Position numbers and translations under genes: made by a program
Source: a phage
Direction: 5' to 3' (one strand)
Sequence record: OZ335957.1
DNA length: 40,153 bases
In this document: positions 13,138 through 29,571 of the stretch, one piece after another
How positions within the stretch are numbered: position 1 is the stretch's first letter
Layout: every line of letters begins with the position of its first letter
The notes under the pieces: generated by a model
Database searches by the model: none
Told to the model about the DNA's origin: nothing
The model's input: the letters and a program-made list of their open reading frames with translations, nothing else

Positions 13138-13353
13138 ATGATTAAACTTATCGAATTTCTAGGTCGTCTGGTGGTGCGTGGTTATCGTCGTGCTGCGGTA
13201 CTGGAACGAAAGGTAGAAAAGAAGACTGCTGATGGCGCGGCTGATGCGGCTGCTCTGGCTGACAAGCTAACCATCGCGTCACTGGAAGCTGGCATGAAGG
13301 CTCGTCAGGCTGATACCAAAGCTGACCAGTTGGCTCAGTTCTTCAAAGACTAA
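13138..13353 (+). CDS. Hypothetical protein (71 aa)
   Basis: RBS AAAGGAG; Ala-rich helical sequence. Confidence 0.5.
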   Translation: MIKLIEFLGRLVVRGYRRAAVLERKVEKKTADGAADAAALADKLTIASLEAGMKARQADTKADQLAQFFKD

Positions 13354-13391
13354 ACTATCACCTTAGGGATGGGACCATGAGTCCTGTCCCT
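13349..13391 (+). promoter_or_regulatory. Degenerate promoter-like sequence overlapping an 11-bp-stem hairpin (R3.8-like)
   Basis: ACTAAACTATCACCTTAGGG (CTTA replaces TATA at -4..-1); hairpin AGGGATGGGAC-CATGA-GTCCTGTCCCT at 13365-13391. Confidence 0.35.
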
Positions 13392-13421
13392 TTGTTCGCA
13401 TTTGTGACTAAGGAGTGACCG

Positions 13422-15584: not shown

Positions 15585-17756
15585 ATGTTTGACCTTAAGA
15601 GTATCTGGGGTTCTGACATCGAGACCAACGGTCTCCTTGATACAGTCTCCCAGTTTCACTGTGGGGTCCTGATTAACGCCGAGTCGAATGAGACCCTTAA
15701 GTATGGGGTAGCTCCGATGGTCGGTATCGTCGGCGGCTTCAAAGAGTATGTTCATAAAGTGGAAGAGATTGCAGCATCACCTGATGGTATGCTGGTATTC
15801 CATAACGGTATCAACTATGACGTCCCGGCTATAGACAAGCTGAAGCGTTTGTACTTTGGGAAACGCTTTAACTTCCCGAAACATAAGATGATTGATACCT
15901 TGGTGCTGGGACGCTTGATGTATCCAAACATTAAGTTCTCAGACATGGGCGCAGTGAAAGCTGGTCGTCTGCCACCTAAGATGATGGGACGCCAGTCTCT
16001 TGAGGCTTGGGGCTATCGTCTCGGTGAGATGAAAGGTGAGTACAAACACGATTACGTTGCCAAGTGCAAGGCTGAAGGTATCGAATATAAGGCTGGGGAC
16101 GAATGGTTGTTCCCGTCTCAGGAGATGCTGGACTATAACGTTCAAGACGTTGTGGTCACACTGGCGTTGTTCAAGAAGTTCCTGACTGACAAGTATTACT
16201 TCCAGTCTGAACAGTTCGCTTTCGACCAGATTTATGCGTTGCGTCTGGAACATGATGCTGCGTGGACCTGTGCGAAGATGGAGCGTAACGGCTATCCGAT
16301 GAACACCGAGATGGTCGAAGGCTTATATCGTGAACTCACTGTCAAACGTGCAGAGTTGCTGGACAAGCTGCGTTCGACTTTCGGTAGCTGGTACGCACCA
16401 AAGGGAGGCAAGGAGTTCTTCAGGCATCCACGGACAGGTAAGGACCTTCCGAAGTATCCGAGGGTCGTGTATCCTAAGGTCGGTGGCATCTTTAAGAAGC
16501 CGAAGAACAAAGCTCAACGCTTAGGTCTTGAACCTTGTGAACGCGATACGCGAGACACGATGGAAGGAGCACCATTCACGCCAATCACTTACGTTGAGTT
16601 TAATCCGGGAAGCGGAGACCACTTAGCGAAAGTCCTGATGGAGCGTGGCTGGGAGCCTGTTGACTTCACTGACACCGGGAAACCTGTAGTCGATGACGAG
16701 ACGTTGGAACACGTTAAGTTACCAGACGCAGAGGCTCAGGCTTGTGTAGAGCTGGTCCGTGAGTATCTGGTAGTCCAGAAGCGCATCGGGCAGGCTGCTG
16801 AAGGTAAGAACGCATGGTTGAAACTTGTAGGTCCAGACGGACGTATGCACGGTTCAATCAACCCTTGTGGAGCAGTAACCGGACGTGCGACCCATAGTTC
16901 ACCAAACATGGCTCAGGTCCCGGCTAACGGTGCTCCATACGGTGAGACTTGCCGTGGTGCTTTCGGTGCAGCGTGGAACAAGAAGGACGGTAAGCCAGAC
17001 CCTTGGATTCAAGTAGGTGTGGACGCTTCAGGTCTTGAGCTTCGTTGTCTGGGGAACCGAGCGGCTCCGTTTGATGGTGGAGACTATGCGAAGACTGTGG
17101 TCGAAGGGGACATCCACTGGGCCAACGCAGTAAACGCTGGGTTAGCACCTAACGTCCCACGCGATAAGTCGAACCATGACCATGATGCTTTCCGTAACAA
17201 CGCTAAGACGTTCATCTATGCGTTCCTGTATGGTGCAGGGGCCGCTAAGATTGGACTGATAGTTGGCGGTGGTAAGAAGGAAGGTGCTACCCTGATGAAG
17301 AAATTCATTGAGGGTACACCAGCTATTAAAGACCTCAGGGAAGCTGTGAGTAATACGTTAATCTCCGAATCCAAATGGGTAGATGGAGAGAACATCGTGA
17401 AGTGGAAACGTCGCTGGCTGAAAGGTCTGGATGGTCGCCGTATCCACATCCGGTCTCCACACTCAGCACTAAACGCATTACTTCAAGGCGATGGTGCGGT
17501 TGTCTGTAAGCACTGGATTGTAGAGACTGAACGTATGCTTGAAGAGGCAGGGTATGTTCACGGCTGGGAGGGAGACTTCGCGTACATGGCCTGGGTTCAC
17601 GACGAATTGCAGATTGCGTGCCGTACTCAGGAGATTGCCGAAGAAGTCGTCAAGATTGCTCAACTTGCTATGCGTAAGGTGGGTGAGTTCTATAACTTTA
17701 AATGTGTCCTTGATACCGAAGGTAAGATTGGACCAACGTGGAAGGAGTGCCATTGA
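15585..17756 (+). CDS. 5: DNA polymerase (T7 gp5-like, family A) with 3'-5' exonuclease domain
   Basis: 723 aa; SDIETNGL (exo I), FHNG.NYDVPA, GSWY.PKGG, KTFIYAFLYGAG (motif B), WVHDELQ (motif C) collinear with T7 gp5. Confidence 0.98.
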   Translation: MFDLKSIWGSDIETNGLLDTVSQFHCGVLINAESNETLKYGVAPMVGIVGGFKEYVHKVEEIAASPDGMLVFHNGINYDVPAIDKLKRLYFGKRFNFPKHKMIDTLVLGRLMYPNIKFSDMGAVKAGRLPPKMMGRQSLEAWGYRLGEMKGEYKHDYVAKCKAEGIEYKAGDEWLFPSQEMLDYNVQDVVVTLALFKKFLTDKYYFQSEQFAFDQIYALRLEHDAAWTCAKMERNGYPMNTEMVEGLYRELTVKRAELLDKLRSTFGSWYAPKGGKEFFRHPRTGKDLPKYPRVVYPKVGGIFKKPKNKAQRLGLEPCERDTRDTMEGAPFTPITYVEFNPGSGDHLAKVLMERGWEPVDFTDTGKPVVDDETLEHVKLPDAEAQACVELVREYLVVQKRIGQAAEGKNAWLKLVGPDGRMHGSINPCGAVTGRATHSSPNMAQVPANGAPYGETCRGAFGAAWNKKDGKPDPWIQVGVDASGLELRCLGNRAAPFDGGDYAKTVVEGDIHWANAVNAGLAPNVPRDKSNHDHDAFRNNAKTFIYAFLYGAGAAKIGLIVGGGKKEGATLMKKFIEGTPAIKDLREAVSNTLISESKWVDGENIVKWKRRWLKGLDGRRIHIRSPHSALNALLQGDGAVVCKHWIVETERMLEEAGYVHGWEGDFAYMAWVHDELQIACRTQEIAEEVVKIAQLAMRKVGEFYNFKCVLDTEGKIGPTWKECH

Positions 17757-19724: not shown

Positions 19725-19798
19725 TTTACTGGGCCGGACTTCTGGCCCTTTACTGCATGTACAAGTGGTTCGGGTCGAACAACCGCCCTAAACACTGA
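19706..19798 (+). CDS. Hypothetical small hydrophobic peptide (30 aa, GTG start)
   Basis: AAAGGAGG 7 nt upstream of GTG; overlaps 3' end of exonuclease gene; gene 6.3 position. Confidence 0.25.
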   Translation: MDTIHVIYWAGLLALYCMYKWFGSNNRPKH

Positions 19799-19850
19799 GT
19801 CTAACCGATAGTCATATCCTATCAATCCAACAGTCATCCATAGGTAAAAT

Positions 19851-19873
19851 ACTAAACTATCACTATAGGGACT
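19851..19873 (+). promoter_or_regulatory. Phage RNAP promoter (phi6.5-like), +1 G at 19868
   Basis: ACTAAACTATCACTATA GGGACT. Confidence 0.8.
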
Positions 19874-19934
19874 TTAGGACCTAAGATATGACTATAAGAT
19901 AGACTTTAGTCTTAACTTAAAGAGGAGATTCAAG

Positions 19935-20207
19935 ATGGCTCTTAATGCTATTGAAAACGTTGTTAAGCAGTTACAGGAAGAAAGACTCGATGTCCCTAAC
20001 ATCTCCCAGTCTGCCATCCAGTTCCTGCACGTATTGTTCAACGCAAGCTATGCTGAGAAGATGGGAGCTATCAGTCTCCTCAAGCAGCAAGGCTACAGCG
20101 ATGCGTTCATTGCCGGGTTCATCAAGGGTCTCCAGTATTGTTCTGACACTCTCGACTCTGCGATTGCTATGCGTCGTGAGCTGAAAGATACCGTTCAGTT
20201 CGATTAA
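19935..20207 (+). CDS. Hypothetical protein (90 aa), gene 6.5 position
   Basis: RBS AAAGAGGAG; first gene after promoter. Confidence 0.6.
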   Translation: MALNAIENVVKQLQEERLDVPNISQSAIQFLHVLFNASYAEKMGAISLLKQQGYSDAFIAGFIKGLQYCSDTLDSAIAMRRELKDTVQFD

Positions 20208-23688: not shown

Positions 23689-23711
23689 ACTAAACTATCA
23701 CTATAGGGAGA
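23689..23711 (+). promoter_or_regulatory. Phage RNAP promoter (phi10-like, best consensus match), +1 G at 23706
   Basis: ACTAAACTATCACTATA GGGAGA; immediately upstream of capsid gene. Confidence 0.85.
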
Positions 23712-23814
23712 CCAAGAGACAGACTCAAGGTTTCCCCTATTACTTCAGTCCATACGGATTGGGCGTACAGTAAGTAATAAACTTTATCTTTCAATTGAAT
23801 AGGAGAATTATCAT

Positions 23815-24864
23815 ATGGCAAACGTTCCGGGTCAGAAAGTTGGTACAGACCAAGGTAAAGGCAAATCTGGTTCCGACGCTCTGGCGTTGTTCCTGAAGGT
23901 CTTTGCTGGTGAAGTCCTGACTGCATTCACTCGCCGCTCTGTAACCGCTGACAAGCATATTGTCCGTACCATTCAGAACGGTAAGTCTGCTCAGTTCCCG
24001 GTCATGGGTCGCACCTCTGGTGTGTATCTGGCTCCGGGTGAGCGACTGTCCGATAAGCGTAAAGGTATCAAACATACCGAGAAAGTGATTACCATTGATG
24101 GTCTGCTGACTGCCGATGTGATGATTTTCGACATTGAAGACGCGATGAACCACTATGACGTGGCTGGCGAGTACTCCAACCAGTTGGGCGAAGCTCTGGC
24201 TATCGCTGCCGATGGTGCGGTACTGGCTGAGATGGCTATTCTGTGTAACCTACCGGCTGCATCTGATGAAAACATCGCTGGTCTTGGCAAAGCGTCTGTG
24301 CTGGAAGTTGGTACTAAAGCCGACCTGAACACTCCGGCTAAGCTGGGTGAAGCAATCATCGGTCAACTGACCATTGCTCGTGCGAAGCTGACATCCAACT
24401 ACGTTCCTGCTGGCGACCGTTACTTCTACACCACGCCGGACAACTACTCTGCAATCCTCGCGGCTCTGATGCCGAACGCTGCTAACTATGCTGCGCTGAT
24501 TGACCCAGAGACTGGTAACATCCGTAACGTAATGGGCTTCGTGGTTGTTGAAGTTCCACACTTGACTCAGGGTGGTGCTGGGGAAACTCGTGGTGACGAT
24601 GGTATCACTATTGCGACTGGTCAGAAGCATGCCTTCCCAGCTACTGCTACTGGTGATGTTAAAGTTGCTCTGGACAACGTTGTGGGCCTGTTCTCTCACC
24701 GTTCTGCTGTAGGTACTGTTAAGCTGCGTGACTTGGCGCTGGAACGTGACCGTGACGTCGATGCTCAGGGCGACCTGATTGTTGGTAAGTACGCTATGGG
24801 TCACGGAGGTCTGCGTCCAGAAGCGGCAGGAGCACTGGTTTTCACAGCGGCGTCAGCGGGTTAA
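23815..24864 (+). CDS. 10A: Major capsid protein (T7 gp10A-like)
   Basis: 349 aa; KLALFLKVF.GEVLTAF, KSAQFPV.GRT, HTEKVITIDGLLTADV, AALMPNAANYAALIDPE, HRSAVGTVKLRDLALER, YAMGHGGLRPEAAG match T7 gp10A. Confidence 0.98.
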   Translation: MANVPGQKVGTDQGKGKSGSDALALFLKVFAGEVLTAFTRRSVTADKHIVRTIQNGKSAQFPVMGRTSGVYLAPGERLSDKRKGIKHTEKVITIDGLLTADVMIFDIEDAMNHYDVAGEYSNQLGEALAIAADGAVLAEMAILCNLPAASDENIAGLGKASVLEVGTKADLNTPAKLGEAIIGQLTIARAKLTSNYVPAGDRYFYTTPDNYSAILAALMPNAANYAALIDPETGNIRNVMGFVVVEVPHLTQGGAGETRGDDGITIATGQKHAFPATATGDVKVALDNVVGLFSHRSAVGTVKLRDLALERDRDVDAQGDLIVGKYAMGHGGLRPEAAGALVFTAASAG

Positions 24865-25127
24865 CGACCTTTAAGGCCCTCTCTACAGAGGGTCCTACCT
24901 TAGAGACGTATAGTTCTACGGTGGGGACCAGCTTGAAGGTTGACTTCCAGGAGCTTTCAGATGTGACCGATTGGTCGCTTCTTGAGGTGACTACGCCTGA
25001 TGGTGTTAGCTACTCCCGTAGAACCAACAGTCTCTACTTCAAGGCCACCTCTGGCGTGGAAGGTCTGGTGATTGTTGGGTATGACGGTTCGCCTGTGCGT
25101 TCCTTCAACGTATCTTTCACAAACTAA
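24837..25127 (+). other. 10B: Programmed -1 ribosomal frameshift site (G GTT TTC) and 94-codon extension giving a minor capsid protein (gp10B-like)
   Basis: Heptamer G GTT TTC in the 10A frame 7 codons before its stop; -1 frame open from 24843 to TAA at 25125-25127; 8-bp hairpin at 24875-24894. Confidence 0.6.
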
Positions 25128-25133
25128 TTGAAA

Positions 25134-25170
25134 CCCCTTGGGTGCCTTCGGGTGCTTGAGGGGTTTTTTG
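25134..25170 (+). terminator. Intrinsic terminator for phage RNAP (T7 Tphi-like)
   Basis: CCCCTTGGGTGCCTTCGGGTGCTTGAGGGG hairpin followed by TTTTTT; close to T7 Tphi (AACCCCTTGGGGCCTCTAAACGGGTCTTGAGGGGTTTTTTG). Confidence 0.9.
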
Positions 25171-25190
25171 CTTAATGATGAGGAGGGACT

Positions 25191-25280
25191 ATGTTCCTTA
25201 TTTACACATGGTTAGTACTATTCGTCTTATTCTGGTCGTACCTGCTGCCAAGCTCACCGTCCAGCCCATATGACCGTTAA
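25191..25280 (+). CDS. Hypothetical small membrane peptide (29 aa)
   Basis: GAGGAGGG RBS 5 nt upstream; FLIYTWLVLFVLFWSYLL hydrophobic. Confidence 0.3.
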   Translation: MFLIYTWLVLFVLFWSYLLPSSPSSPYDR

Positions 25281-25291
25281 GGAGTAAACCT

Positions 25292-25858
25292 ATGCCTCAA
25301 TACATTCCACTGAATGCTAACGATGACTTAGACGCCATCAACGATATGTTAGCTGCTATCGGTGAACCAGCAGTCCTACAGCTTGACGAAGGTAACGCTG
25401 ACGTCTCGAACGCTCAACGTATCCTGCATCGTGTTAATCGTCAGGTCCAAGCTAAAGGCTGGAACTTTAACATCAACGAAGCTGCTGTCCTGACGCCTGA
25501 TGTCCAAGACAACAGGATTCGATTCCTGCAGTCTTACCTTCGGGTCATGACTGCTGGTGCTACCAGTTACTACAGCAACATGGGGGGCTATCTCTATGAC
25601 CTGTCCACTCAGTCCACGACCTTCACTGGACCAATTACAGTCGAACTGGTGGAGATGAAACCGTTCGCTGAGATGCCTGTAGTATTCCGTGACTACATCG
25701 TTACCAAGGCTAGCCGTGAGTTCAACGCTAAGTTCTTCGGTAGCCCAGAGTCTGAACTGTACCTTCGTGAGCAGGAAGCAGAACTCTACCAGCAGGTGAT
25801 GGAGTACGAGATGGACACTGGTCGCTACAACATGATGTCCGACATCGGGAGGGACTAA
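25292..25858 (+). CDS. 11: Tail tubular protein A (T7 gp11-like)
   Basis: 188 aa; position and size match gp11; RBS AAGGAG. Confidence 0.9.
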   Translation: MPQYIPLNANDDLDAINDMLAAIGEPAVLQLDEGNADVSNAQRILHRVNRQVQAKGWNFNINEAAVLTPDVQDNRIRFLQSYLRVMTAGATSYYSNMGGYLYDLSTQSTTFTGPITVELVEMKPFAEMPVVFRDYIVTKASREFNAKFFGSPESELYLREQEAELYQQVMEYEMDTGRYNMMSDIGRD

Positions 25859-26085
25859 TGGCTAGTCACAACCTGAAGATTCACCGCCAGCACTTTGGTC
25901 CGGTACAACTAGGTCTAAAGACAGCAGAGCTGAGACTTAACGACCGGGACTTTAAGGTTGGCGACTGGCTTATCCTGAATGAGTGGGACAACGGGTATAC
26001 TGGACAACAGGTAGCACGTAAGGTTGTCCACATTGCTGACGTTGGTGACATCGCTGAGGGATACGTCCTAATGAGTATGATTTAA
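25858..26085 (+). CDS. Hypothetical small protein (75 aa) between tail tube genes; ASCH/DUF3850-like fold suspected
   Basis: TAATG coupling to gp11; KTAELRLNDRDFKVGDWLILNEWD resembles DUF3850/ASCH-type motifs (from memory); T7 has no gene here. Confidence 0.6.
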   Translation: MASHNLKIHRQHFGPVQLGLKTAELRLNDRDFKVGDWLILNEWDNGYTGQQVARKVVHIADVGDIAEGYVLMSMI

Positions 26086-26094
26086 GGAGGGCCT

Positions 26095-28452
26095 ATGCCA
26101 CTAATTACTCAATCAATCAAGAACCTTAAAGGTGGTATTAGCCAGCAGCCAGACATACTGAGGTTCTCAGACCAAGGCGAGGCACAGGTTAACTGCTGGT
26201 CATCCGAGAGTGATGGCCTCCAGAAGCGCCCACCTACAGTCTTCAAGAGACGTCTTAACATCGACGTTGGGAGTAACCCTAAGTTCCACCTGATTAACCG
26301 TGACGAGCATGAGCAGTATTACATCGTGTTCAATGGGTCCAACATTCAGGTAGTGGACTTGAGTGGTAATCAATACTCAGTTTCCGGTGCGGTAGATTAC
26401 GTTAAGTCCTCCAACCCACGAGATGACATCCGTGTCGTTACCGTTGCAGACTATACGTTCATCGTGAACCGTAAGGTTGTCGTTAAAGGTGGAAGCGAGA
26501 AGTCACACTCTGGTTATAATCGTAAAGCACGTGCTTTAATTAACCTGCGTGGTGGACAGTATGGTCGCACCCTTAAGGTAGGAATCAACGGAGGAGTTAA
26601 GGTTTCGCATAAGTTGCCAGCAGGTAATGATGCCGAGAATGACCCTCCTAAGGTTGATGCTCAGGCTATCGGTGCAGCTCTAAGAGACCTTCTTGTTGCT
26701 GCTTACCCTACCTTCACGTTCGACCTTGGGTCTGGATTCCTGTTAATCACTGCCCCTTCAGGTACTGACATTAACTCAGTGGAGACGGAGGATGGATACG
26801 CTAACCAGCTAATCAGCCCAGTCCTCGACACGGTGCAAACAATCTCTAAGTTGCCTCTTGCAGCTCCAAATGGGTACATCATTAAGATTCAAGGTGAGAC
26901 CAACAGTAGCGCCGATGAATATTACGTGATGTATGACTCCAACACTAAGACGTGGAAGGAGACAGTAGAGCCGGGAGTTGTCACTGGGTTCGATAACACC
27001 ACAATGCCACACGCTCTGGTACGACAATCTGATGGCTCCTTTGAGTTCAAGGCTCTGGACTGGTCTAAGCGTGGTGCTGGTAATGATGACACAAACCCTA
27101 TGCCTAGCTTCGTGGATGCTACGATTAACGATGTGTTCTTCTACAGGAACAGGCTAGGGTTCTTGTCAGGCGAGAACGTAATCATGAGCCGTTCAGCCAG
27201 CTACTTTGCGTTCTTCCCTAAGAGTGTGGCGACACTGAGTGATGATGACCCTATTGATGTAGCTGTAAGTCACCCTCGAATCTCAATCCTTAAGTATGCC
27301 GTTCCGTTTAGCGAGCAGCTACTACTTTGGTCGGATGAGGTTCAGTTCGTGATGACAAGCTCTGGTGTCCTTACCTCGAAGTCTATCCAGCTTGATGTAG
27401 GCTCAGAGTTTGCCTTAGGAGATAATGCCCGACCGTTCGCTGTAGGACGCTCAGTCTTCTTCTCAGCGCCTCGTGGGTCATTCACCAGCATTAAGCGATA
27501 CTTCGCTGTAGCAGATGTGTCTGACGTGAAGGATGCCGATGATACCACAGGCCACGTACTGTCCTATATTCCTAACGGGGTGTTTGATATTCAAGGTACA
27601 GGGACTGAGAACTACATCTGCGTCAACTCTACAGGTGCATACAACCGAATCTACCTCTACAAGTTCTTGTTTAAGGACGGAGTACAGCTTCAAGCCTCTT
27701 GGTCTCACTGGGAGTTCCCTAAAGCTGATAAGATTCTGGCGTCTGCGTCGATTGGCTCTACCATGTTCATTGTTCGTCAGCACCAAGGCGGCGTGGACCT
27801 TGAGCACCTTAAGTTCATCAAGGAGGCAACTGACTTTCCGTCAGAGCCGTATAGACTCCACGTTGACTCCAAGGTGTCTATGGTCATCCCAATTGGCTCG
27901 TTTAATGCTGACACATATAAGACTACGGTTGACATTGGTGCTGCTTATGGTGGTAATGCTCCGTCTCCCGGTCGGTACTATCTGATTGACAGTCAGGGTG
28001 CTTATTTGGACCTTGGGGACTTGACCAGTATCTCTACTGTGATTACCCTCAACGGCGATTGGTCAGGACGTACAGTGTTCATCGGGCGGTCCTATCTGAT
28101 GTCCTACAAGTTCTCACGGTTCCTGATTAAGATTGAAGATGATAGTGGCACTCAGTCTGAAGACACTGGTCGTCTACAGCTTCGTCGGGCTTGGGTCAAC
28201 TACAAGGACACTGGCGCTCTGAGGCTCATTGTCAGAAACGGTGAGCGAGAGTTCGTTAACACCTTTAATGGGTACACCCTTGGTCAGCAAACCATAGGGA
28301 CTACTAACATTGGTGACGGGCAGTATCGCTTCGCTATGAATGGTAACGCATTAACCACGAGTCTAACCTTAGAGTCCGACTATCCTACCCCAGTGTCAAT
28401 CGTTGGATGTGGCTGGGAGGCGTCATACGCTAAGAAAGCTCGTTCCGTCTAA
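26095..28452 (+). CDS. 12: Tail tubular protein B (T7 gp12-like)
   Basis: 785 aa; MPLITQSIKNLKGGISQQPDILR start typical of gp12; position. Confidence 0.95.
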   Translation: MPLITQSIKNLKGGISQQPDILRFSDQGEAQVNCWSSESDGLQKRPPTVFKRRLNIDVGSNPKFHLINRDEHEQYYIVFNGSNIQVVDLSGNQYSVSGAVDYVKSSNPRDDIRVVTVADYTFIVNRKVVVKGGSEKSHSGYNRKARALINLRGGQYGRTLKVGINGGVKVSHKLPAGNDAENDPPKVDAQAIGAALRDLLVAAYPTFTFDLGSGFLLITAPSGTDINSVETEDGYANQLISPVLDTVQTISKLPLAAPNGYIIKIQGETNSSADEYYVMYDSNTKTWKETVEPGVVTGFDNTTMPHALVRQSDGSFEFKALDWSKRGAGNDDTNPMPSFVDATINDVFFYRNRLGFLSGENVIMSRSASYFAFFPKSVATLSDDDPIDVAVSHPRISILKYAVPFSEQLLLWSDEVQFVMTSSGVLTSKSIQLDVGSEFALGDNARPFAVGRSVFFSAPRGSFTSIKRYFAVADVSDVKDADDTTGHVLSYIPNGVFDIQGTGTENYICVNSTGAYNRIYLYKFLFKDGVQLQASWSHWEFPKADKILASASIGSTMFIVRQHQGGVDLEHLKFIKEATDFPSEPYRLHVDSKVSMVIPIGSFNADTYKTTVDIGAAYGGNAPSPGRYYLIDSQGAYLDLGDLTSISTVITLNGDWSGRTVFIGRSYLMSYKFSRFLIKIEDDSGTQSEDTGRLQLRRAWVNYKDTGALRLIVRNGEREFVNTFNGYTLGQQTIGTTNIGDGQYRFAMNGNALTTSLTLESDYPTPVSIVGCGWEASYAKKARSV

Positions 28453-28476
28453 CTTATTGAAGGGCCTATAGATTTA

Positions 28477-28499
28477 CCTTAACTATCACTATAGGGACT
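28477..28499 (+). promoter_or_regulatory. Phage RNAP promoter (phi13-like), +1 G at 28494, bracketed by an 11-bp perfect inverted repeat
   Basis: CCTTAACTATCACTATA GGGACT; AGGGCCTATAG (28461-28471) / CTATAGGCCCT (28497-28507). Confidence 0.8.
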
Positions 28500-28528
28500 A
28501 TAGGCCCTTAAGGTTATAAGGAGACTTT

Positions 28529-28999
28529 ATGTATATTCGCAAGGCTACGGAACCAGATGTCCACTACTTTCTGTGGCATCTTTCAGCAGATGATGTTAAT
28601 GAGTGCAAAGCAAACTATGGGTCAACCGTTGGTATCTCTGAAAGACTGCTTAAGCACCTATCTCCGTCATCTGTGGTTTTAACGAACGGTGTAGGCGAAG
28701 TGTTTGCCTATGGTGGAAACCAAGGGGATAACGTATGGTTCTTGACTTCCGGTCTTGTCTATAAGCTGAGACCTAAAGAGAAGCGAGAGTTCATGAAGCG
28801 TATCTCTGAGTACAGGGACTTAATGTTAGACCAATACGGGACCATCTGGAACTACGTGTGGTCAGGCAATAAGTCTCACATTAAATTCTTGAAGTTGCTT
28901 GGGGCTAAATTCCATGATGATTGGACTGTAAGCCCAGTAACTGGTGAGCGTTTTCAACTATTCACTATCTCTAAGGAGGACGTATGTGCGAGCCAGTAA
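28529..28999 (+). CDS. 13: Internal virion / head assembly protein (gp13 position)
   Basis: 156 aa; synteny between tail tube B and gp14; RBS AAGGAG. Confidence 0.7.
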   Translation: MYIRKATEPDVHYFLWHLSADDVNECKANYGSTVGISERLLKHLSPSSVVLTNGVGEVFAYGGNQGDNVWFLTSGLVYKLRPKEKREFMKRISEYRDLMLDQYGTIWNYVWSGNKSHIKFLKLLGAKFHDDWTVSPVTGERFQLFTISKEDVCASQ

Positions 29000-29571
29000 G
29001 TATCGGCATGGGTATTATGGCTGTAGCTGGTGCCACTATGTCCGCATCACAACAGGCCAAGGCTGAAGGAGCAGCAATTGACGCTCAGAACCGTCAGGCT
29101 CAGGAGATGGTTAAGCAGATGAACTACTCTGACGCCAACCTGAGGATGCAGGAGCGAGACCTGAAGGAGCAGCAGATGGCTGAACTGACAGAGACCACTC
29201 TAAACGGTATCCGCAATCAGGGTATGGTACGAGCTGCGGTGGCTGAGTCAGGTCTGGAGGGTAACTCTATGGACAGGATTGAACGTCAGGTCGCAGGAGA
29301 TACCGTCAAGGAGCGAGCAGGGATTACCGAAAGCTACAACCGTGACTATGCGGCTATCTTCGGGAACCGTATCGCCAACATTGAGAATACCAAGTCTGCT
29401 ATCCGTGGTCAGGGTAAAATCATCAAGACCAGCCCACTGGCTCATGCACTTAATGTTGCTAACGCCGGGATGCAGGGGTACGCTGCTGGTAAGTCAATAT
29501 CTGGGGCATCAAGCTCTGGTGGTGCTGCACCGATTAGTGCTGCTAAAGGCACACCTACAAGTCATAGCTAA
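28984..29571 (+). CDS. 14: Internal virion protein B (T7 gp14-like)
   Basis: 195 aa; QQAKAEG...Q.....NYSDANL....R..L.E..........GSMDRI pattern matches T7 gp14. Confidence 0.9.
   Translation: MCEPVSIGMGIMAVAGATMSASQQAKAEGAAIDAQNRQAQEMVKQMNYSDANLRMQERDLKEQQMAELTETTLNGIRNQGMVRAAVAESGLEGNSMDRIERQVAGDTVKERAGITESYNRDYAAIFGNRIANIENTKSAIRGQGKIIKTSPLAHALNVANAGMQGYAAGKSISGASSSGGAAPISAAKGTPTSHS

Follow-up and report, generated by a model that had tools for sequence, protein, structure and literature searches.

We found a 12-bp perfect inverted repeat in the spacer between tail gene 12 and core gene 13 of a K1F-type coliphage with a Kayfunavirus genome, in which AAGGGCCTATAG (28460-28471) pairs with CTATAGGCCCTT (28498-28509) and 26 nt lie between the two arms. 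RNA transcribed across the spacer is predicted to fold into a hairpin with a late phage promoter in its loop. By analogy with the T7 group, this hairpin is probably the K1F-clade counterpart of the processing signal R13, an RNase III processing site. Positions are those of the window, i.e. the whole 40,153-nt stretch of DNA that was analysed (OZ335957.1).

Inverted repeat, promoter and predicted RNA fold

Over the 1 kb surrounding the repeat (28000-29000), identity was 99% with Mt1B1_P3 and ASO2B and 97.7% with K1F. The repeat is located on the transcribed strand, within the 76 nt that separate the end of gene 12 (28452) from the start of gene 13 (28529). Gene 12, encoding tail tubular protein B (26095-28452, plus strand), was recognised as an ORF and is annotated as gene 12 or tail tube in K1F and its relatives. 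Gene 13, encoding internal virion protein A (28529-28999, plus strand), was likewise assigned from its ORF and from the annotation in relatives. With the adjoining gene ends, the spacer reads ...GTC TAA CTTATTG AAGGGCCTATAG ATTTA CCTTAACTATCACTATA G(+1)GGA CTATAGGCCCTT AAGGTTATAAGGAGACTTT ATG..., and a gene 13 Shine-Dalgarno sequence, AAGGAG (28518-28523, plus strand), can be read from it 5 nt ahead of the AUG.

An earlier note on this DNA had described the repeat as a perfect one of 11 bp. Its perfection was confirmed, but the length is 12 bp, the extra outer pair being A28460/T28509. The left arm in that note, AGGGCCTATAG at 28461-28471, was correctly placed; the right arm, put at 28497-28507, was off by one, and the reverse complement CTATAGGCCCT sits at 28498-28508. 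The repeat stops at a mismatch on either side, with G28459/A28510 as the next outer pair and A28472/A28497 as the next inner pair. To estimate how often such repeats arise by chance, we scanned the whole window and compared it with dinucleotide-preserving shuffles. Perfect inverted repeats of at least 12 bp with a loop of no more than 60 nt occurred once in the 40-kb window versus 0.07 times per shuffle. The hexamer CTATAG, which is its own reverse complement, is part of the promoter core and makes up half of each arm, and it is found three times within 40 nt (at 28466, 28489 and 28498). The complementarity that goes beyond this repeated promoter motif comprises only the outer 6 bp (AAGGGC/GCCCTT). 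Apart from the 12-bp repeat, the window has a single perfect inverted repeat of at least 11 bp with a short loop; in this repeat, at 2328-2368, a 19-nt loop separates the 11-bp arms CTAAGGTCAGT/ACTGACCTTAG.

The enclosed promoter, CCTTAACTATCACTATAGGGACT (28477-28499, plus strand, -17 to +6), is of the type used by the K1F phage RNA polymerase and is the equivalent of phi13. It matches the core at 19 of 19 positions, and this 19-nt core, TTAACTATCACTATAGGGA, occurs nine times in the window versus zero expected. The promoter is annotated in relatives, namely in MZ726794 (as a K1F-consensus promoter) and in CR44b (HG818823). The transcription start proposed in the earlier note, 28494, agrees with our assignment of +1 to G28494, which was made by analogy with T7-type promoters. 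The loop of the repeat holds the entire promoter except +5 and +6, which overlap the 3' arm. We also considered a divergent minus-strand promoter using the left arm, and rejected it as only 4 of 11 specificity positions matched.

A search for phage promoters from 23691 to 28479 found none in between, and a Tphi-like terminator is located at 25145-25162, upstream of gene 12. The mRNAs for genes 11-12 must therefore come from further upstream and cross the repeat. The terminator region itself (25145-25172) consists of CCTTCGGGTGCTTGAGGG followed by GTTTTTTGCT, has the appearance of a Tphi-like intrinsic terminator and is located behind the capsid gene. No recognisable phage promoter separates it from gene 11, at a place where T3 has phi11.

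We next predicted the folding of the transcripts. RNA covering 28445-28535 (91 nt) gave a fold centred on the 12-bp stem, at -27.8 kcal/mol (z=-3.2), and the 60-nt hairpin core alone gave -21.5 kcal/mol (z=-3.0). The earlier note had envisaged that read-through RNA would form a hairpin with the promoter in its loop and that RNA started at the promoter would carry the right arm only. Both proposals held up. In the predicted fold, the promoter up to +4 occupies the 26-nt loop, whereas RNA starting at G28494 lacks the 5' arm and had no significant structure (-7.1 kcal/mol, z=+1.0), leaving the gene 13 Shine-Dalgarno sequence unpaired. In some of the read-through folds, the Shine-Dalgarno sequence was partly paired.

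RNAalifold, applied to 24 distinct K1F-type sequences, yielded a 9-bp upper stem (GGCCUAUAG/CUAUAGGCC) and, across an internal loop, a lower stem of 5 bp, UAACU/AGUUA (28450-28454 with 28512-28516), that takes in the stop codon UAA of gene 12. The two strands of this lower stem, UAACU and, in the window, GGUUA (both on the plus strand), were also paired in the single-sequence fold. Pair counts showed that three of its five pairs are invariant and that one alternates between U-A and U-G. A scan of the whole window at the Rfam gathering threshold gave no matches, and we found no Rfam family for T7-type RNase III sites either.

Several other promoters in the window are accompanied by predicted structures. 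The promoter at 1861 (1861-1879), whose 19-nt core is identical to that at 28479, is flanked in the MFE fold of 1806-1895 by the short complementary segments AGUAACC...GGUUACU. At 19798-19905, between a gene 6-like ORF and an ORF starting at 19935, a second promoter-enclosing hairpin is formed by a 24-nt imperfect inverted repeat (83% complementary; RNA fold z=-3.6), with an 11-bp perfect core, AUAGUCAUAUC/GAUAUGACUAU, around the phage promoter at 19853-19875; its layout is that of R6.5 and phi6.5 in T3. The heptamer GTCTAAC is present in 18 copies over both strands versus 5.6 expected, and none of 100 shuffles reached 18. Its sites include 1829, 19799 and 28447, three copies that lie 30-70 nt upstream of the three hairpin-enclosed promoters. 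Transcripts from the promoters at 13351 and 23691 have a stable RNA hairpin that starts exactly at +1 (13366-13395 and 23706-23740), which we take to resemble the 5' stem-loop of T7 phi10 transcripts.

Conservation in the K1F clade and across the subfamily

The 96-nt hairpin region was present in 221 phage records, with an identity of 99% or more in 81. From IMG/VR, metagenomes and GenBank, we gathered 24 distinct K1F-type sequence types. Conservation in relatives had been named in the earlier note as a check on the repeat, and the 9-bp core was indeed almost invariant, being unchanged in about 22 of the 24 types. Single changes occurred in L006 (A to G, with the pair kept as G-U), L106 (the innermost G to U) and L108 (U to C). 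In the 5' arm, this core (28463-28471) forms an invariant island, the sequences immediately flanking the arm being variable; the 3' arm was invariant save in one sequence. The core was retained even where the promoter specificity region from -17 to -5 had been wholly replaced (L021, L026 and L028). The third pair, G28462-C28507, was mismatched in 16 of the 24 types, so that the perfect 12-bp stem, found in the remaining 8, is a feature of the K1F subclade.

Double compensatory changes were found at none of 19 pairs within the clade, and shuffles equalled the observed values. As the arms barely vary within the clade, a covariation test is uninformative there, and the evidence from the K1F clade is purifying selection, not covariation. 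Helices outside the stem that reach over the Shine-Dalgarno sequence were also considered as a conserved feature and rejected, since they vary among relatives.

More divergent Kayfunavirus records keep the arms. In Ro103C3lw (L124, MN067430), the stem extends inward to 15 bp, covers the promoter start and thereby spans two registers, that of the window and that of T7, in which the promoter start itself is the 3' arm. The T7-style register was also seen in L024 (IMGVR_UViG_2700988933), which belongs to the K1F-like gp13 clade and has different arms, GUCCCCUAUGGU/ACUAUAGGGGAC. These two cases indicate that the 3' arm has changed its place as the clade evolved. For the window itself, we rejected a T7-style register, as only 7 consecutive base pairs form (10 of 15 pairs).

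We then compared the gene 12/13 spacer in approximately 23 lineages whose gp13 homologues are 36-67% identical, comprising T7-, T3-, K11- and K1F-like phages and several unnamed ones. In all of them, the stop codon of gene 12 is closely followed by a segment that pairs either with the start of the promoter or with the bases just after it, and the MFE folds of 23 of 23 lineages contained a helix with one strand upstream of -17 and the other at or after -6. In one layout, the partner is the promoter's -7 to +8, as in T7 (UUCUCCCUGUGGUG/CACUAUAGGGAGAA), T3-like and K11-like phages, L084, L063 (where the start region AGCCCAAC is paired by GUUGGGUU, 15 of 15 pairs) and L024, with the arms given above. 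In the other, the partner lies just after +1, at +5 to +16 in the window, +1 to +13 in L111, +1 to +12 in L090 and +8 to +15 in L055. Pairing was thus kept with different arm sequences, for example GUUGGGUUAGUAGUG/CACUAUUAGCCCAAC in L063 and CCUCUUGACUC/GAGUCAAGAGG in L111, and similarly in L084, L024, L090 and L055.

The pairing was then assessed by shuffling and by strand, using 23-24 representative lineages that are not fully independent of each other. When the left segment was shuffled 300 times, no more than 3 shuffles matched the observed duplex energy in 18 of 24 representatives. In 20 of 23 lineages, the sense RNA had a more stable fold than its antisense counterpart (mean -24.4 versus -19.9 kcal/mol; Wilcoxon p=0.0007), and the enclosing helix contained G-U pairs in 22 of 23. 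With the same pairing built from differing sequences and with wobble pairs available to the sense strand only, the pattern across the subfamily favours an RNA structure of the transcribed strand over a palindrome in the DNA. The comparison shows that the embedding of phi13 in a hairpin is a subfamily-wide design, which co-variation maintains despite changes in promoter specificity and in the sequence of the arms.

In several lineages, the 3' part of the promoter recurs downstream of phi13 as a degenerate direct copy. Such copies are seen in the window (CTATAGG twice, 28489-28504), in T7 (AATACGACTCAC/AATACGACTAC; L004 358-400) and in K11-like phages (CACACTATAGGGAGAC/CACACTAAGAGGGGAC; L086), and they provide two alternative partners for the 5' arm. 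In L077, the best duplex was the one given by the downstream copy. A further peculiarity of this spacer is a run of approximately 15 G between phi13/R13 and gene 13 in T3 strain Luria (L093 1001-1016; AJ318471 ~25500-25515), at a position where phiYeO3-12 and T3-like contigs have GGGG.

Candidate RNase III processing and rival explanations

Late transcripts that start at upstream promoters and encode genes 11-12 must pass through the gene 12/13 spacer. There, the read-through RNA would fold into the 12-bp upper stem, an internal loop and a short lower stem, with the promoter in the 26-nt apical loop. If the hairpin acts as R13 does, host RNase III may make a single cut on the 3' side, at or near the base of the upper stem, roughly at 28509-28512. 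The gene 11-12 mRNA would then have a protective hairpin at its 3' end, and the cut would release an mRNA for gene 13 onward whose 5' end lies ~15-18 nt downstream of the promoter-initiated 5' end. RNA initiated at G28494, having no 5' arm, would be unable to form the structure and would presumably not be processed.

The predicted structure has several properties expected of a substrate. E. coli RNase III needs a minimum of 11 bp between the cut and the helix end (PMC1540722), and the 12-bp perfect stem of the window satisfies this minimum. RNase III substrates typically comprise two helical turns, which coaxially stacked short helices can supply (PMC1540722). If stacked, the helices here would total ~17-21 bp, made up of the 12-bp stem, the conserved 5-bp lower stem and 3-4 non-conserved outer pairs, with internal loops between them. 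Internal loops limit cleavage to one strand, and the 3' hairpins that remain shield upstream RNA from 3'-5' exonucleases (PMC1540722). Assuming a cut at the stem base, proximal-box positions pb4 and pb3 would be A-U and pb1 would be G-C, all of which are favourable. Position pb2 would be G-C, which is inhibitory at this position in microR1.1 (PMC1540722); under the same assumption, pb2 is a U-C mismatch in 16 of 24 relatives. The short stem and the large 26-nt apical loop speak against a canonical two-turn substrate. Searches of the open literature gave neither RNA-end data for K1F-type phages nor a paper linking RNase III specifically with K1F or Kayfunavirus.

These unfavourable features leave room for a functional RNA structure that is not cut by RNase III, a reading that we consider rather unlikely. 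The hairpin could then be a barrier to 3' exonucleases that stabilises the gene 11-12 mRNA, or it could discriminate between transcripts by origin, as the lower and outer helices of read-through RNA partly cover the ribosome-binding region of gene 13 and promoter-initiated RNA leaves it open. The short stem, the large loop and the unfavourable G-C at the would-be pb2 fit this reading, as do the lack of structure in promoter-initiated RNA and those read-through folds in which AUAAG/AGAC, or the Shine-Dalgarno GGA, pair with the region of the gene 12 stop codon; moreover, RNase III binds some structures without cutting them (PMC1540722). However, conservation is lacking in the outer helices that reach the Shine-Dalgarno sequence, with GUCU replaced by AUCU or AUAU in many relatives and the Shine-Dalgarno sequence displaced by a 10-11-nt insertion in others. 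They also lie in or beside the coding end of gene 12, where terminating ribosomes would melt them, and the T3 and phiYeO3-12 hairpins at the corresponding position carry an RNase III site annotation. A more specific form of this idea, to which we give little credence, is an origin-dependent switch. In that case, the 3' arm at +5 to +16 and the two CUAUAGG partners would give read-through and promoter-initiated gene 13 RNAs different fates, in stability or translation, without cleavage, or RNase III would bind without cutting.

It is also improbable that the repeat works only as DNA, as a protein-binding palindrome or cruciform, or that it is a remnant of a local duplication or inversion of CTATAG with no function as RNA. 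The three self-complementary CTATAG copies within 40 nt account for half of each arm and could stem from local duplication, the repeat is perfect as DNA in the window, and compensatory changes are absent within the clade. Yet the G-U wobbles of other lineages would be mismatches in DNA and on the opposite strand, stability is significantly higher for sense than for antisense RNA, arm sequences differ wholly among lineages while the pairing is kept, and the 5' arm core stays invariant between variable flanks. A GC-containing stem directly after the stop codon would be in keeping with a signal that makes phage or host RNA polymerase pause or terminate where gene 12 ends, but we regard such a signal as highly improbable. 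The stem lacks a U-run behind it (the sequence reads UUAAGGUUAUAAGG), its loop measures 26 nt and the downstream genes 13-16 need to be expressed. A scan around the hairpin for sigma-70 promoters and terminators returned nothing relevant there, whereas the Tphi-like site was found at 25145-25162. The T7 class II termination signal is ATCTGTT, and this sequence is absent from the gene 12/13 spacer. As for a chance repeat without function, the genome-wide expectation of 0.07 per shuffle for a perfect 12-bp repeat is not negligible. However, the repeat falls within a 76-nt spacer and around a promoter, is conserved over 221 records and has structural equivalents with other sequences throughout the subfamily, and these comparative data effectively refute chance.

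Comparison with known processing signals

The hairpin occupies the position of R13, as the earlier note had suggested on the basis of T7, since R13 is placed in the gene 12/13 spacer in the curated records of T3 and phiYeO3-12. In T3 (AJ318471), a stem_loop at 25443-25480 is annotated as 'RNase III recognition site R13', with phi13 (25457-25479) nested inside. In phiYeO3-12 (AJ251805), a stem_loop at 26209-26246, 'putative RNase III site R13', contains phi13 at 26223-26245. T7 records list phi13 and not R13, and the equivalent T7 hairpin is formed by UUCUCCCUGUGGUGG/UCACUAUAGGGAGAA (z=-4.2). We take the published cleavage coordinate of T7 R13 to be 27281, presumably +8 of phi13. R13 is among the T7 RNase cleavage sites listed in PMC6938266.

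Among 60 sampled Kayfunavirus-type records, including both K1F references, none carried a stem-loop or processing-site annotation at this place, the promoter being annotated at most. The hairpin thus fills an annotation gap at the gene 12/13 spacer of Kayfunavirus-type genomes, although it may have been mentioned in the original K1F genome paper. It is relevant to those who engineer K1F and related therapeutic phages or reuse K1F promoters, as edits to this spacer could change how the tail-gene and core-gene mRNAs are processed and how stable they are. It opens no new question in RNA biology.

Like R13 of T7, T3 and phiYeO3-12, the hairpin of the window is on the same strand, and its 5' arm begins a few nucleotides past the gene 12 stop codon. 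It also contains the phi13 promoter, so that promoter-initiated RNA lacks the 5' arm. The stem length is comparable, with 12 bp versus 14-15 bp in the three R13 sites. The arm sequences, in contrast, are unrelated to those of T7 and T3 R13, and the stem pairs are all Watson-Crick, whereas the T7 and T3 stems include 2-3 G-U pairs. The register differs as well. The 3' arm of T7, T3 and K11-type phages consists of promoter positions -7 to +8 and the loop measures 10-19 nt, whereas in the window the 3' arm lies at +5 to +16 and the promoter up to +4 is in the 26-nt loop.

The predicted upper stem, internal loop and lower stem resemble those of single-cut signals of the T7 R1.1 type, of which microR1.1 is a minimal substrate (PMC1540722). 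The upper stem meets the 11-bp minimum, and the expected product, an upstream RNA ending in a hairpin, is also the same. Unlike these signals, the predicted hairpin of the window has a much larger apical loop and box sequences that are not obviously canonical.

The layout is that of R6.5 of T3 (AJ318471, 17135-17206), which encloses phi6.5 (17160-17182) with arms that flank the promoter as in the window. In both, the 5' arm stops just ahead of -17, and +5 is the first position of the 3' arm. R6.5 differs in its locus, which is gene 6.3/6.5 and not 12/13, and in its longer, imperfect arms within a 72-nt element. The register variant in the window already has a precedent at T3 R6.5. The hairpin would not surprise a specialist in T7-like phages and is probably best seen as an ordinary, previously unannotated instance of the known R13 design.
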